From: a virus
IMG/VR virus record: IMGVR_UViG_3300032242_001844
Length of the DNA: 64,000 bases
Direction: 5' to 3' (one strand)
Shown here: positions 4,794-50,694 of the stretch, piece by piece
How the letters are laid out: every line of letters begins with the position of its first letter
How positions within the stretch are numbered: the stretch's first letter is position 1
The notes under the pieces: model-generated
Told to the model about the DNA's origin: nothing
What the model saw: the letters and a program-made list of their open reading frames with translations, nothing else
Databases searched by the model: none
Translations under genes and position numbers: made by a program

Positions 4794-5528
4794 ATGCCAA
4801 ACTTTAACATTGCGGGTGGATGGACAATAGGAAACGGTTGGGGATTACAAAGTTATAGTGGTGGAAATCCTGTTACTGCTGGTCTTGTTATGAACCTTGA
4901 TGCCGCTACCCTATCAGCAAATCCAACAACTTGGACAGATAGCGTAAGTAGTTTGGTATTCACACTTAATAATTCACCTACTTATAGTAGTGCTAATGGT
5001 GGTATATTACAGTTTAATGCTGCAAGTAGTCAGTGGGCATCAAGTCCTAATCAAAGTTTTGGATCACTTTCAAATTGGAGCGTTGAAGTTTGGCATTATT
5101 ATACAGGTAACAATACTGGTCAATTGCCTTGTATTGTTACGGAAACTTTTACTGGTGCAAGTATCAATTTTAACTTGGGTAATGGTAATGGCAGCAGCGG
5201 AAACCTACAAAGTGGTTGGTATAATGGCGGATGGCGAACTACTGCGACTACTTACTCACTGCCCACTACCAATGCTTGGTATCAAATTGTAGGAACTTGG
5301 GATGGTTCAAACAATGTTCTTTATGTAAATAATTCCGTAATAAGCACAGTTGCTGGTTCAGGAACATCATCAAGTAGTGGTAATGGTATAAGATTGATGA
5401 ACCGTTGGGATACTGGTAACTATTGGGACGGAAGTTTAGGCATAGTTCGTATATACAATGGTGCTCTTACTCCTACACAAATTTCACAAAATTATAATGC
5501 TAACAAAACAAGATTTGGTTTGGTATAA
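4794..5528 (+). CDS. LamG-like lectin/glucanase domain virion protein
   Basis: GLVMNLDA, WYQIVGTWDG, RIYNGALT..ISQNYNA motifs. Confidence 0.8.
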   Translation: MPNFNIAGGWTIGNGWGLQSYSGGNPVTAGLVMNLDAATLSANPTTWTDSVSSLVFTLNNSPTYSSANGGILQFNAASSQWASSPNQSFGSLSNWSVEVWHYYTGNNTGQLPCIVTETFTGASINFNLGNGNGSSGNLQSGWYNGGWRTTATTYSLPTTNAWYQIVGTWDGSNNVLYVNNSVISTVAGSGTSSSSGNGIRLMNRWDTGNYWDGSLGIVRIYNGALTPTQISQNYNANKTRFGLV

Positions 5529-41011: not shown

Positions 41012-41016
41012 ATAAA

Positions 41017-41256: not shown

Positions 41257-41329
41257 TGGTTGCGGTCGCTGGTGACGCTCCAGTTCTGTTGGTTATGAGC
41301 CAACCGTGGCACTTTTCCACTACCCCGCA
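41257..41329 (-). tRNA. tRNA-Met(CAT), initiator-like 5' end, atypical T-loop
   Basis: TGCGGGG start, loop CTCATAA, T-loop AGCGTCA, CCA. Confidence 0.7.
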
Positions 41330-41900: not shown

Positions 41901-41928
41901 AAGTCATGATCATTACTGACCATGACTT
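41901..41928 (-). terminator. Probable intrinsic terminator
   Basis: aagtcatggtca-gtaa-tgatcatgactt followed by TTT on minus strand. Confidence 0.5.
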
Positions 41929-41966
41929 AATATACCATATTATTTTACACTGTCAAGCGTTTTTAA

Positions 41967-45146: not shown

Positions 45147-45208
45147 TGAGCGGCAGCGGGGAATCGAACCCCGTGGTTGTTAGTTAAAGCACCCATGCAA
45201 ACCACCGC
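45147..45208 (-). ncRNA. Anticodon-less mini-tRNA or tRNA pseudogene
   Basis: GCGGTGG/CTGCCGC acceptor, perfect T-arm, only 28 nt between, ends TCAA. Confidence 0.6.
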
Positions 45209-46722: not shown

Positions 46723-46959
46723 TCAATTTTTTGACACTTTTTGGTACTGATCGTGCCAGAATTTAGAGGCTGTCCGCAACTTAAAGTTGCTTTCCCGTAC
46801 ATATTCTAGCAGTGCTCTGGCTAAGGTTTCCTGTTCGGATCGCCAAGCAGCGTCAGGCTCAGTAGCCATCTTATCAAGCAGTCCCTGAGCCATATCAATA
46901 TATGGACAAGTATCTTCGGGAATAACAGGTTTGTCAAGTGGTTTAGGAGTTCTAGCCAT
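46723..46959 (-). CDS. Hypothetical protein
   Basis: TTGACA-17-TATATT promoter 6 nt before ATG. Confidence 0.6.
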   Translation of the reverse strand: MARTPKPLDKPVIPEDTCPYIDMAQGLLDKMATEPDAAWRSEQETLARALLEYVRESNFKLRTASKFWHDQYQKVSKN

Positions 46960-47003
46960 ATTACTAATATATCATGTTTTTTTAAGGTTGTCAAGAGAAA
47001 AAT

Positions 47004-47077
47004 TGGCACCACCGCTAGGATTTGAACCCAGACCAAAGGTTTTGGAGACCCTTACGCTACCATTACGCCACGGTGAT
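47004..47077 (-). tRNA. tRNA-Trp(CCA)
   Basis: Loop CTCCAAA; G73; CCA. Confidence 0.9.
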
Positions 47078-47175
47078 GTATTAAATTTTGCCTTGCTGAA
47101 ACCACCTGCATCCATTTGGAGCCAGTACTAGTCAAGGGCTACTCTTATGCTTGGGGAGTAGCGTCCCGTAGATAT

Positions 47176-47206
47176 AAAAAAACCCCCGAAACTTTCGTTT
47201 CAGGGG
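47176..47206 (-). terminator. Intrinsic terminator (attenuator) upstream of tRNA array
   Basis: CCCCTGAAAC-GAAA-GTTTCGGGGG-T7. Confidence 0.9.
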
Positions 47207-47250
47207 CAAGTGCATACTCTAATGTGCGATCACATTAGGCACACGCCCCC
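47202..47250 (-). promoter_or_regulatory. Antiterminator hairpin overlapping leader stop codon and terminator 5' arm
   Basis: GGGGGCGTGTGC pairs with GCACTTGCCCCT and encloses CTAATGTG-ATCG-CACATTAG. Confidence 0.75.
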
Positions 47251-47315
47251 TCAATCCAGAAACCTTCTGGCATGCGGCAAATGTTATAATCATTATGTTT
47301 AGGCGTGTTAGTCAT
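47235..47315 (-). CDS. Leader peptide MTNTPKHNDYNICRMPEGFWIEGACA (not in ORF track)
   Basis: GAGAG SD, ATG, 26 codons, TAA inside antiterminator. Confidence 0.7.
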   Translation of the reverse strand: MTNTPKHNDYNICRMPEGFWIEGACA

Positions 47316-47337
47316 GTTTGCTCTCAATTTGTAGTTC

Positions 47338-47367
47338 TATTTATACACGATAAAAAATATTTGTCAA
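47338..47367 (-). promoter_or_regulatory. Composite promoter (TTGACA-16-TATAAA overlapping TATAAATA late box)
   Basis: TTGACA 47367-47362; TATAAATA 47345-47338. Confidence 0.65.
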
Positions 47368-47370
47368 GAA

Positions 47371-48300
47371 TTATTTTATGCTTGCCCAAACTTTTTTTAC
47401 ATCACTCTTTTGTGCAGTAGTTAGCGGAACATAATCTAGTTCTTCTGCCATCTTGTCATTAGCATAGCCAAATTCAAAAAACTTGATTGCAGCCTTTGAA
47501 GCATCACTATCGCTTGGTGCTTTATACATTACGATATAAGAAGTAGCAACCATTGGCCAAGTAGTTTGGAAAGCCTTTAGGCTTGGAGAAACTGCCTTGC
47601 CATCGCTACCAATCATATTAGCTGTAGTAAGATCATTCTGCTTTGCATATGCATATTCTACATAACCAATTGAACCATTGGTTTGTTGAACATTAGCTGC
47701 AACGCCAGCGTTACCATTAGCGCCAATAGCACCGCCTATCCATTCAATTGATTGTCCAAAGTTATATGTCTTCTTCCAATCGGCATTTGCTTCTGCAAGG
47801 AAGCGTGTGAAATTCCAAGTAGTACCGCTACCATCACTACGACGAATCTTAATGATTGGAAGATCAGGTAGTGCAACACCAGGATTGATTGCTGCAATTT
47901 CCTTGTCATTCCAACGCTTGATCTTTTCCATATAGATTTTAGCAAGGATATCGGTTGAAAGCGTTAGCTTGCCACTTGCAACTTCTTTGAGATTTACAAC
48001 TGGAACAATACCACCAACGATCATAGGGAACTGTACTTGACCTTTCTTTTCTAGGTCTTCTGGCTTTACTGGAATGTCAGTAGCACCAAATGTAACTGTT
48101 TTAGCTTCAATCTGCTTCATACCTGCGCCACTACCGATTGATTGATAGTTTAGTGTATTGCCTGAACTCTTCTTATAAGCATCTGCCCATTTTGCATAGA
48201 TTGGATATGGGAAGGTAGCACCTGCACCTGTAATTTCAGCAGCATAAGCTGCTGTACCAATAATCGTTGCTGCTGCAACTGCGAGTAGTCTGGTTAGCAT
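47371..48300 (-). CDS. pstS: Phosphate ABC transporter substrate-binding protein PstS
   Basis: ITGAGATFPYP, YQSIGSGAG, RSDGSGTT, IGYVEYAY. Confidence 0.95.
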   Translation of the reverse strand: MLTRLLAVAAATIIGTAAYAAEITGAGATFPYPIYAKWADAYKKSSGNTLNYQSIGSGAGMKQIEAKTVTFGATDIPVKPEDLEKKGQVQFPMIVGGIVPVVNLKEVASGKLTLSTDILAKIYMEKIKRWNDKEIAAINPGVALPDLPIIKIRRSDGSGTTWNFTRFLAEANADWKKTYNFGQSIEWIGGAIGANGNAGVAANVQQTNGSIGYVEYAYAKQNDLTTANMIGSDGKAVSPSLKAFQTTWPMVATSYIVMYKAPSDSDASKAAIKFFEFGYANDKMAEELDYVPLTTAQKSDVKKVWASIK

Positions 48301-48329
48301 ATGGTTTTCTCCTTTGAAATGCTAAACAT

Positions 48330-48363
48330 AATTTATCATACTATTATGACAGTATTATGACAC
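48330..48363 (-). promoter_or_regulatory. Pho box promoter of pstS
   Basis: GTGTCAT-AATA-CTGTCAT, 10 nt, then TAAATT. Confidence 0.8.
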
Positions 48364-49215
48364 TAACTTCATTCCATAATTATTAATTTGATCTGGTATT
48401 ACTAGTCCTGTTTTTTTTATTAGTTTGTTATTTTTAAATGGACGATAATCAACATGGTGGTGCCAACGATTAAAACGCCATACTACTTTGGCAACATCTG
48501 GATGTAAATCAGCTAACATCTGAGATTTTGCCATCGTGCCTTCTTGTTTGTAAAAGTCAGCAGTATTGCCACCTGCCATCCGCTGTGTAGTAACTTTTCC
48601 AGCTAAGAAAGTATTAAATTGGATAGTACAAAACCCATCTTTTAATACTCGTAACGATAGATCGGTGTCTTCATTGTATCGTCCACGCCAACGATATGGT
48701 ATATCGTTTTGTATAAGAAGAATAGAATAAATTCTAGTATTCAGTACAAATGGCGGTACCGCATCCGTTGCTTTGCAGAAACTATAGTAATTAAATCCAC
48801 TTATTGGAACATTTTCATATCTGTCTACAAAATCTTCTGCAATTTTAAATATTGTTCCGCTTTTAACTTCTGCTTTAACATTGCGATTAAAACGATGAAA
48901 CGCATCAAAGTTATCATCCAATACCCAATGTTTAGTTGCGCCTTGGCTTATACTATGTTCCCATGCAAAGTTTCTAGCAGCGCCAGGCCCTTTGCTCTTA
49001 GTGCTTCCAAGATTGTCACATGTATCATATTCATCTAGATATTTTTGGTCAAGTACAAGAATTTTTTTAGGATCAATGACAGCGGCATATTTGTCATATT
49101 CACTTGCTTCGACTACAATATGATATGGCACATTAATTTCTTCTAGTGCTTTACTGGTTAGCCTAGATTCCCATCTGCCTTTAGATACTATATAAACTGG
49201 ATGATTAGGATTCAT
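48355..49215 (-). CDS. GREB1-like/TET-associated glycosyltransferase (TAGT)
   Basis: VYIVSKGR, GAARN, WVLDDN, NEDTDLSLRVL, MAGGNT. Confidence 0.75.
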   Translation of the reverse strand: MNPNHPVYIVSKGRWESRLTSKALEEINVPYHIVVEASEYDKYAAVIDPKKILVLDQKYLDEYDTCDNLGSTKSKGPGAARNFAWEHSISQGATKHWVLDDNFDAFHRFNRNVKAEVKSGTIFKIAEDFVDRYENVPISGFNYYSFCKATDAVPPFVLNTRIYSILLIQNDIPYRWRGRYNEDTDLSLRVLKDGFCTIQFNTFLAGKVTTQRMAGGNTADFYKQEGTMAKSQMLADLHPDVAKVVWRFNRWHHHVDYRPFKNNKLIKKTGLVIPDQINNYGMKLVS

Positions 49216-49471
49216 CTACCCACCGCTTGCTTGCGTTAAGCCCACGAACTAATTGAGGATGCCAAATACTTTTTGTTTTTGGAGTAAGTTTTTGACCAAT
49301 TAATTTACTAAATTCTTCTAATGCTTCTGCGCTGTCAAATCTTACAATGATCTTAGCAAATGGTTCTTGCTTTTCCTGCACAAATTCAGGCATGTTTTTC
49401 CATTCATCGCGTGGATTAAATGTATGAGTTTCCTCTTCTTCAAACAAGTTGTTATCAAGCTGCTTGGTCAT
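49205..49471 (-). CDS. Small protein coupled to the TAGT gene
   Basis: EWKNMPEF...KSIWHP; overlaps both neighbours. Confidence 0.65.
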   Translation of the reverse strand: MTKQLDNNLFEEEETHTFNPRDEWKNMPEFVQEKQEPFAKIIVRFDSAEALEEFSKLIGQKLTPKTKSIWHPQLVRGLNASKRWVDES

Positions 49472-50694
49472 TATTCTTCCTCAAATAAATTATTAAACAC
49501 AGTATTAATTTTAGCTTCTTCTCTTTTTTCAACGATTGCAATACGAGCACGAGCAATATCAATATACTCTTGGCTCATCTCAATACCGATAAAGTTAAAT
49601 CCACCAAGCATTGCACCACGACCAGTAGAACCACTGCCCATAAATGGATCAAGAACAGTCCCGTTGGGTGGTGTCACCATCTTGCACAAGTAAATCATTA
49701 AATCAGTTGGTTTTACTGTTGGATGTGTATTTTTTCTAACAGTTGCGCCGCGCTGATAAGCGTTGTTAGCATCTACCTTGCGACCGTCATTTGTTTTTCC
49801 ACCTTCAAAATCATCTAATCCATCATTGCGATCTTGTGGACTTGCTTTTGCGCCATAGAAAAACTTTGACCATTCTGTTTCTATGCTGCCATCATGAATA
49901 AAGTTTGCTGGCCAACGACCAAGATCATTTGGTTTGTACTCTACGCCATTTTGATCTGTATAATATGCGTTAGGACGAAAACCATGCTCGGCGTTTTTCT
50001 TATCTTGTGCCGCCCATCCAGTTCCTATCATAGCTTTTGGTAGTTCGCCTTCAACACGAGTAGCATCAATATTCAGTGCACCTGTGCCATGTTTTAACAC
50101 ATTTTCTGCAACAGTTTTTTCACCCAACGGTTTTCTTGCTACGCAAATTGGTTCATGCGATGGTTTAAGTGCAGTTCCCCATCCGCTCCATTGTTGCGCT
50201 TCTGGCGTTGCGGGATTATCATTTGTAATTCCACCTTTGCGTTCATCGCTCATAACGCCATTATTTGGAAGAGTTGCTGTTTCTCTGCTTTCGCCAGGCC
50301 GCTGTTCAATTGCAGATTTAATATTTTTACTATGTGAACCGCCTGTTAATATCTTGGCATCAATTGCTTTACTAACATCATGATTCTTTGGAAACCCTGT
50401 GCCATACACCCACATAATTTGGTCACGAATTTCAAAACCAGCATCTTCAATGGCAACCGTCATACGATGATATGTGCGTGAACCGCTAAACGCAAGCATA
50501 TGTCCGCCTGGTTTTAACACACGCAGAACTTCACGCCACATATCCGTATTATACGCAATGCCACTGGCATCCCAACTTTTACCCATAAATCCAAGTTCAT
50601 ACGGTGGATCGGTTACAATGCTATCAACGCTATTGTCAGGTAGAGTTTTGAGTTGAACACGACAGTCGCCGTGCAGTAATGTTACATTTGCCAT
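49471..50694 (-). CDS. DNA amino-methyltransferase (N6A/N4C, beta class)
   Basis: TDPPY before VLDPFMGSGST; HPTVKP. Confidence 0.9.
   Translation of the reverse strand: MANVTLLHGDCRVQLKTLPDNSVDSIVTDPPYELGFMGKSWDASGIAYNTDMWREVLRVLKPGGHMLAFSGSRTYHRMTVAIEDAGFEIRDQIMWVYGTGFPKNHDVSKAIDAKILTGGSHSKNIKSAIEQRPGESRETATLPNNGVMSDERKGGITNDNPATPEAQQWSGWGTALKPSHEPICVARKPLGEKTVAENVLKHGTGALNIDATRVEGELPKAMIGTGWAAQDKKNAEHGFRPNAYYTDQNGVEYKPNDLGRWPANFIHDGSIETEWSKFFYGAKASPQDRNDGLDDFEGGKTNDGRKVDANNAYQRGATVRKNTHPTVKPTDLMIYLCKMVTPPNGTVLDPFMGSGSTGRGAMLGGFNFIGIEMSQEYIDIARARIAIVEKREEAKINTVFNNLFEEE

Follow-up and report, generated by a model that had tools for sequence, protein, structure and literature searches.

Why would a phage place a short open reading frame (ORF) and a strong intrinsic terminator between a promoter and the first of its transfer RNA (tRNA) genes? 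The question is raised by a cassette at positions 47176–47367 (minus strand) of a 64,000-nucleotide (nt) stretch of viral DNA, IMG/VR virus record IMGVR_UViG_3300032242_001844 (the whole stretch is hereafter called the window), where it stands at the head of a tRNA array. An original prediction, made from the sequence without database searches, read it as an attenuator whose leader samples many codons and senses depletion of tRNAs in general. The answer that we tentatively favor, and to which we give a little under an even chance, is that the cassette is a leader-ORF attenuator gated by the position of the ribosome; what it would control lies immediately behind it, not throughout the array.

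If this answer is correct, a phage is using trp-style ribosome-mediated attenuation to control non-coding RNA and tRNA genes, and a full-text literature search turned up no paper describing attenuators upstream of phage tRNA genes. The cassette is the conservation peak of its region, which points to a function that these phages cannot afford to alter, and it is accompanied by a new covarying structured RNA, here called element 2. Since the promoter is of an ordinary sigma-70 type and the terminator is intrinsic, E. coli extracts or reporters should suffice for testing the device, with no need for the native host.

Parts of the cassette and collection of relatives

The window is part of an uncultured myophage, with tail sheath and baseplate genes present and a GC content of ~36%. 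Read along the minus strand, the cassette consists of the following parts:

47340–47367, minus strand: sigma-70-type early promoter, with -35 TTGACA at 47367–47362, -10 TATAAA(T) at 47345–47340 and a TG upstream of the -10
47321–47325, minus strand: GAGAG, a Shine-Dalgarno (SD)-like motif 5 nt before the ATG, invariant while the flanking 5' untranslated region (UTR) varies
47235–47315, minus strand: leader ORF MTNTPKHNDYNICRMPEGFWIEGACA plus stop, 26 codons, ATG at 47315, TAA at 47237–47235
47302–47308, minus strand: region 1, ACACGCC, codons 3–5, the upstream partner of region 2 (7 base pairs (bp) in the minimum free energy (MFE) fold)
47283–47297, minus strand: run of NAY codons, CAT AAT GAT TAT AAC (His-Asn-Asp-Tyr-Asn), candidate control codons
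47256–47270, minus strand: internal hairpin CCAGAA-GGT-TTCTGG, codons 16–20 (Pro-Glu-Gly-Phe-Trp), present in the MFE fold
47239–47250, minus strand: region 2, GGGGGCGTGTGC, codons 22–26, the strand for which regions 1 and 3 compete
47219–47238, minus strand: stop-codon hairpin CTAATGTG-ATCG-CACATTAG, a perfect 8-bp stem containing the stop codon
47203–47213, minus strand: region 3, GCAC-TT-GCCCC, GCACTTGCCCC, partner of region 2, its GCCCC doubling as the base of the terminator stem
47176–47207, minus strand: intrinsic terminator GCCCCTGAAAC-GAAA-GTTTCGGGGGT plus T7, an 11-bp stem with a GAAA loop and a stem energy of -18.6 kcal/mol

A spacer, AGAGTAT, lies between the stop-codon hairpin and region 3. 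Much of this anatomy was already in the original prediction, and its promoter, its GAGAG motif, its exact list of 26 codons with the count of 23 distinct ones, and its strong terminator (47207–47176) all proved correct. The cassette has no counterpart in the family databases that we searched: Rfam gave nothing at E ≤ 1 between 36000 and 48500 beyond the tRNAs (no leader, riboswitch, T-box or small RNA family), a search at E ≤ 10 over 47000–47380 returned far sub-threshold noise alone, tRNA-Trp excepted, and PHROGs held no family for the leader peptide. An nhmmer search with a cassette profile found a single copy per contig, including one in the 64-kb window, and none at distant loci.

We collected the cassette from ~40 IMG/VR and Joint Genome Institute (JGI) contigs and one contig from a metagenome-assembled genome (MAG), which together gave 20 distinct variants. 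The relatives were recruited through the adjacent 78-amino-acid (aa) gene, exact and degenerate DNA patterns, and the terminator pattern; the pattern matches L073–L079 were false positives in unrelated GC-rich sequences. The cassette alignment comprises 18 variants, and some checks were extended to 20, with L072 and the divergent L071 among them. tRNAs were called with ARAGORN and Rfam, the tRNA content of the relatives being read from the fetched stretch around each cassette. Among the INPHARED phages the match was limited to the tRNA-Trp part, with no cultured relative found; the cassette belongs to a clade of uncultured freshwater myophages.

Predicted competing folds of the leader transcript

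The transcript is strongly structured (fold z-score = -5.0). In the MFE fold region 1 pairs with region 2 (ACACGCC with the GGCGUGU of the last codons), and the CCAGAA-GGU-UUCUGG hairpin, the stop-codon hairpin and the terminator are formed as well. The alternative pairing of region 2 with region 3 is best represented as two helices, GGGGC:GCCCC and GUGC:GCAC, with an internal loop between them and the stop-codon hairpin inside, and it removes the five bp of the terminator stem nearest the U-run. The original prediction had recognized that the last codons are complementary to the region of the 5' arm of the terminator, such that antiterminator and terminator folds are mutually exclusive, and this we confirmed; it had thereby described the 2:3 and 3:4 half of the switch while missing the region 1:2 pairing and the stop-codon hairpin. 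With these included, the modeled layout of 1:2, 2:3 and 3:4 pairings is complete, as in the topology of classical attenuators.

The folds open to the transcript before the terminator is made are nearly isoenergetic (-37.0 kcal/mol with 1:2 paired and -35.5 kcal/mol with 2:3 paired, a gap of 1.5), and the region 2–region 3 hairpin, at -23 to -25 kcal/mol, rivals the terminator at -18.6 to -20.8 kcal/mol. When we simulated a ribosome footprint, P-site positions on codons 1–17 gave 10 bp of region 2:3 pairing, and P-site positions at codon 18 or beyond gave at most 4 bp. In sequential folding, a check that had been proposed together with the original prediction, regions 1 and 2 paired immediately once region 2 was exposed; this held for the window, L044 and the divergent L071. 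The emergence of region 3 then flipped the MFE fold to the 2:3 state in L044 and L071 but did not do so in the window, and the full-length optimum returned to region 1:2 plus terminator.

From these models a mechanism can be proposed. On a ribosome-free transcript region 1 would pair first with region 2, and the terminator would form. A ribosome delayed on approximately codons 1–17 would mask region 1, region 2 would capture region 3, and RNA polymerase would read through; once a ribosome had advanced to at least codon 18, or to the stop codon, it would cover region 2, and the terminator would form again. Read-through transcripts would reach the ~80-nt element 2 and, in most lineages, tRNA-Trp. 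In this scheme the leader ORF is predicted to be translated, the position of the ribosome would select the fold, and delayed elongation may be the opening condition. We also considered a sensor specific for tryptophan and rejected it; the single TGG is codon 20, and a ribosome there covers the GGGGC of region 2 and favors the terminator.

Constraint on the RNA and on the leader peptide

Nothing else in the region is as conserved as the cassette, not even the tRNA that it precedes. Mean pairwise identity is 93% for the cassette, vs. 62% for tRNA-Trp (unusually divergent among these related contigs), 65% for the adjacent 78-aa gene and 54% for the third positions of that gene, and 7 of 26 third positions vary in the leader vs. 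71 of 80 in the 78-aa gene. Relatives differ in what lies upstream of the cassette. Within the cassette, variation is found in the promoter spacer (both hexamers are invariant in the 18 variants), the 5' UTR, codons 2, 7, 8, 10, 11, 21 and 22, the loops of the hairpins, the segment between the stop-codon hairpin and region 3, and the region 3 linker (TT, TTA or TTAA). Helix nucleotides, synonymous and non-coding sites included, are fixed or altered only with pairing kept, and the GCAC and GCCCC of region 3 are conserved despite the length-variable linker between them. Region 2 has zero third-position changes in 20/20 variants, although our search patterns left third positions free; third-position-free patterns for codons 12–20 and 23–26 likewise retrieved only the identical nucleotide string.

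The 1:2, 2:3 and 3:4 pairings are 100% pairable in the 18 aligned variants, and both alternative pairings are kept, together with the ORF, in 20/20. Region 1 is invariant in sequence and pairs in 18/18 variants; in L072 it reads ACAUGCC (C-G to U.G), and in L071 it has a different sequence that still pairs with region 2. The internal hairpin, invariant in the 18 variants, shows an A-U to G.U change in L072 and an altered loop in L071. Region 2:3 has one G-C to G.U change (in L060), and the terminator has one-sided, pairing-preserving changes only (U.G/C-G, A-U/G.U). The stop-codon hairpin has variable loops and one compensatory A-U to G-C pair, found in six variants that have lost the TAA and stop two codons later. 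The ORF is open in 20/20 variants, its sole internal insertion or deletion (indel) being 3 nt long and in frame, and codons 7–10 stay NAY in 19/20. The exception is L071, which rewrites codons 4–16 and has no His-Asn/Tyr-Asp-Tyr run, while keeping Met-Thr-Asn, Ile-Cys, Arg, Pro-Glu.Phe-Trp and Gly-Ala-Cys-Ala; its conserved Ile/Cys/Arg codons differ synonymously (e.g., TGC to TGT and CGC to CGT).

As judged from this pattern, the RNA pairings and the peptide (or the translation of the leader) are both under selection. The original prediction had proposed a search of homologs for a short ORF with covarying antiterminator and terminator: the leader ORF and both pairings are there in all 20 variants, but helices 1:2 and 2:3 are without covariation. 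We attribute the lack of covariation in the coding stems to the double constraint of RNA and peptide; the non-coding element 2, by contrast, covaries freely in the same contigs.

Other causes of the conservation were considered. Open antisense stretches exist, but 1–2-nt indels in the hairpin loop, region 3 linker and promoter spacer break their frame, and an antisense ORF was rejected as the cause. Recent horizontal spread is an unlikely source of the high identity, as the 5' UTR, promoter spacer and element 2 share a deep lineage split while the core is fixed. Distant relatives of the 78-aa gene are found without the cassette and without an adjoining Trp/Cys-type tRNA array (two carry only tRNA-Met/Leu ~2 kb downstream), a co-absence that is confounded by phylogeny.

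Transcription beyond the terminator

Three features follow the cassette on the same strand:

47089–47168, minus strand: element 2, a two-stem structured RNA of ~80 nt, GC-richer, directly 3' of the terminator and present in every cassette lineage (20)
47004–47077, minus strand: tRNA-Trp (CCA), the tRNA nearest to the cassette on its downstream side, with no further gene ahead of the next promoter
46966–46994, minus strand: next early promoter, TTGACA-17-TATATT, with 11/12 consensus positions, which ends the gateable unit

The consensus of element 2 has 22 predicted pairs, nine of them with compensatory changes, and its G.U pairs fix its strand as that of the tRNAs; Rfam gave no match to it. 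Element 2 directly adjoins tRNA-Trp in the window and in L055, L057 and L032. It may serve as a signal for processing, persist as a stable RNA or work in antitermination in a put-like manner. tRNA-Trp follows the cassette in most relatives but is missing behind it in L071. On the minus strand of the window there is no promoter-like site between the terminator and element 2 or tRNA-Trp. In the L032-type relatives the terminator stem is separated by only ~21 nt from the start of a 52-aa ORF that has an AAGGAG SD, which leaves no room for a promoter, and element 2 and tRNA-Trp come after this ORF; it lies at 5230–5388 (plus strand) in L032 and at the matching place in L005/L037-type loci, in three variant groups, and matched no family. 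A promoter hidden in the terminator and T-run was considered for this ORF and rejected, as its -35 would be AAACGA and its start site would fall inside the SD.

Because element 2 covaries and has no promoter of its own, transcription must read through the strong terminator. This promoterless functional sequence downstream is the main argument that termination at the cassette is partial or regulated. The promoter at 46994, together with the others in the array (see below), also limits the reach of the cassette, so that it would gate only element 2 and, usually, tRNA-Trp, and not the whole array.

The promoter at 46994 also belongs to the 78-aa gene (46723–46994, minus strand), whose ATG comes 6 nt after the -10 hexamer (TATATT-AGTAAT-ATG), such that its messenger RNA (mRNA) looks leaderless. 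Homologs of this gene occur in 28 viral contigs, including phages without tRNA genes in the fetched stretch around the gene.

Comparison with known leaders and cassettes

The classical transcription attenuators of enterobacteria that act through leader peptides (trpL, hisL, pheL, thrL, ilvL and pheM) resemble the cassette in most of their layout. In the cassette as in these attenuators, a promoter and an intrinsic terminator are separated by a short ORF that has a ribosome-binding site (translation being predicted for the cassette), the 1:2, 2:3 and 3:4 pairings exclude one another, the ORF runs from immediately ahead of region 1 to region 2, and no promoter lies between the terminator and the downstream sequence. 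Unlike them, the cassette is phage-encoded, has no run of a single control codon, conserves the peptide itself, nests an extra stop-codon hairpin inside the antiterminator, and precedes a structured RNA and a tRNA rather than genes for amino-acid biosynthesis or synthetases.

TnaC, SecM and the Erm leaders sense the nascent peptide and act via Rho access or SD unmasking. They share with the cassette a very short ORF upstream of the regulated region, a conserved peptide that includes an invariant Trp, and control of a downstream event by ribosome position; the cassette differs in its intrinsic terminator switch and in having no recognizable arrest motif. The promoter-early stem-loop (PeSL) cassettes of T4-type phages are recombination linkers present in many copies per genome. 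They too place an early promoter and a stem-loop beside small ORFs in a plastic genome region, whereas the cassette described here is single-copy per contig and much longer, and has a conserved ORF.

Weighing the attenuator against other explanations

Several observations count against a ribosome-gated attenuator. Whereas the trp, his and phe leaders repeat a control codon in a run, this leader has only a mixed His-Asn/Tyr-Asp-Tyr run, in 19/20 variants. The full-length terminator fold always wins thermodynamically, and the switch must therefore be kinetic. Helices 1:2 and 2:3 are almost invariant, so that there is no true covariation proof, the only double change being that in the stop-codon hairpin. 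The third positions of Ile12, Cys13, Arg14 and Gly18 lie outside the helices of both folds and yet do not vary, a constraint that the attenuator model leaves unexplained. Finally, the conserved peptide (Ile-Cys..Arg.Pro-Glu.Phe-Trp..Gly-Ala-Cys-Ala) is not what one expects of a classical leader, and would suit a functional microprotein or an arrest peptide just as well.

The last point bears on the possibility that the cassette is a stand-alone early gene for a microprotein of 26–29 aa, in which the hairpins stabilize a short mRNA, the terminator is simply leaky and the overlap of its arm is non-regulatory. The ORF has its own promoter, SD, ATG and terminator, it is kept in 20/20 variants, L071 and L072 show synonymous changes at conserved residues (ACT to ACA, TGC to TGT, CGC to CGT, CCT to CCC, GAA to GAG), and neighboring small genes likewise have their own TTGACA promoters. 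Coding constraint alone, however, cannot account for 13 codons that lack any synonymous change in the 18 variants, given that the adjacent gene varies at 71 of 80 third positions, and it leaves the conserved non-coding GCAC and GCCCC, with their length-variable linker, unexplained; moreover, the peptide lacks a signal peptide or membrane segment and a PHROGs match. We consider this explanation unlikely. We put at a slightly lower level still a ~155-nt phage small RNA, possibly of dual function with a small ORF, that would end at the terminator and pair with or bind a host or phage target, element 2 then being a separate RNA. Nucleotide conservation above that of the adjacent tRNA, the strength of the structure, a terminator hairpin with a U-tail as is typical of small RNAs, and invariant unpaired segments such as AUUUGCCGCAUG, a possible seed, all fit such an RNA. 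The invariant SD and ATG, the maintained frame and the in-frame indel point instead to translation, no Rfam family matched, and element 2 needs transcription through the terminator at which such an RNA would end.

The codon-sampling leader of the original prediction accepts the same switch and makes a broader claim about its signal: many codons would be matched to tRNAs of the array, and the loss or cleavage of these tRNAs (by PrrC, colicin E5 or PARIS) would stall the ribosome and switch on an anti-defense tRNA supply. That phage tRNAs counter anticodon nucleases is established (PMC11464382), and this role speaks for the idea. The Lys codon and the His-Asn/Tyr-Asp-Tyr run after it also occupy the very positions at which a ribosome, if stalled, would mask region 1. 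That 23 of the 26 codons are distinct is correct but only mildly unusual (P about 0.013–0.022, in the top 1–2% of same-size samples), which is mild for a post hoc observation. Residues 2–20 are all covered by the array if the Pro-like tRNA described below is counted (P = 0.023 for the window, and 27/27 distinct residue states across the family), but without it the P-value for coverage is 0.18, and at the codon level 21/26 codons are decodable by the array vs. a 65% baseline (P = 0.06). Composition is a confound here, in that AT-rich codons fall in the tRNA-covered set at 100% (no G/C) or 80% (one G/C). Leu and Ser tRNAs go unsampled in codons 1–26 of the window-type leader (there is a Ser codon 2 in L034 and L062, and a C-terminal Leu in six variants), and the frozen synonymous sites read by the same tRNA (ATT, TGC, CGC, GGT) are not predicted by codon sampling.

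Relatives and the layout of the array are also at odds with a sensor for the whole array. The statement that Gln and Val are absent from both leader and array is broken in relatives, many leaders having a GTG codon without tRNA-Val in the fetched stretch and L034 having tRNA-Gln without a leader Gln codon. In L071, which rewrites codons 4–16 and lacks the His-Asn-Asp-Tyr run, the cassette is not followed by tRNA-Trp. At least five strong internal promoters feed the remainder of the array. Given these and the weak match between codons and tRNAs, we did not retain the broad depletion sensor, and regard the codon-sampling leader as improbable. The core of the original prediction, a translated leader whose 3' end is the antiterminator strand competing with a terminator, fared better: its structure was upheld and was strengthened by the comparative data, and it is the ribosome-gated attenuator that we carry forward. 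A more specific version of that attenuator would open only when elongation falters early in infection, e.g., when host anticodon nucleases cut Lys or His/Asn/Asp/Tyr tRNAs, and would release an element 2 that boosts transcription or processing of the tRNA region, e.g., in a put-like manner; as a complete scenario this is quite improbable, more so than any of the readings above.

The tRNA array and neighboring genes

The array of the window comprises 20 tRNAs for 16 amino acids, with no tRNA-Pro called by ARAGORN or Rfam, and the earlier statement that all 15 leader amino acids have a tRNA in the array did not hold in this respect. There is instead a Pro(UGG)-like sequence at 41012–40936 (minus strand) with an aberrant T-loop, GGCAGCG, which neither ARAGORN at default settings nor Rfam calls, and a Met(CAT)-like sequence at ~41257–41329 (minus strand) found only at a relaxed ARAGORN threshold. 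These two sit where L032 and L036 carry canonical tRNA-Met and tRNA-Pro, and a canonical tRNA-Pro(UGG) is present in the relatives L032, L036 and L071. Strong promoters at 46994, 46719, 41956, 38870 and 37876 (minus strand) split the array into several units; the caveat in the original prediction that internal TTGACA promoters might feed downstream tRNAs was well placed for the first two of these, and the other three extend it.

At 41901–41956 (minus strand), just upstream of tRNA-His (41889–41815), promoter, hairpin and tRNA are combined for a second time, here with no ORF: a TTGACA-16-TATATT promoter leads directly into a 12-bp hairpin that ends in a T-rich tail. Between tRNA-Asp and tRNA-Glu, at 45150–45208 (minus strand), there is a weak tRNA-like (mascRNA-type) match (E = 0.6).

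Upstream of the cassette, 47371–50694 (minus strand) encodes a PstS-like phosphate-binding protein, a TET-associated glycosyltransferase, an 88-aa ORF and an N6/N4 DNA methylase, the PstS-like gene ending at 47371, just before the cassette promoter. The only match to the cassette in the species-genome collection was L069 (RGPR01000083.1), an 8.4-kb contig binned in a freshwater 'Gammaproteobacteria' MAG, which may be a mis-binned phage contig or may hint at the host.

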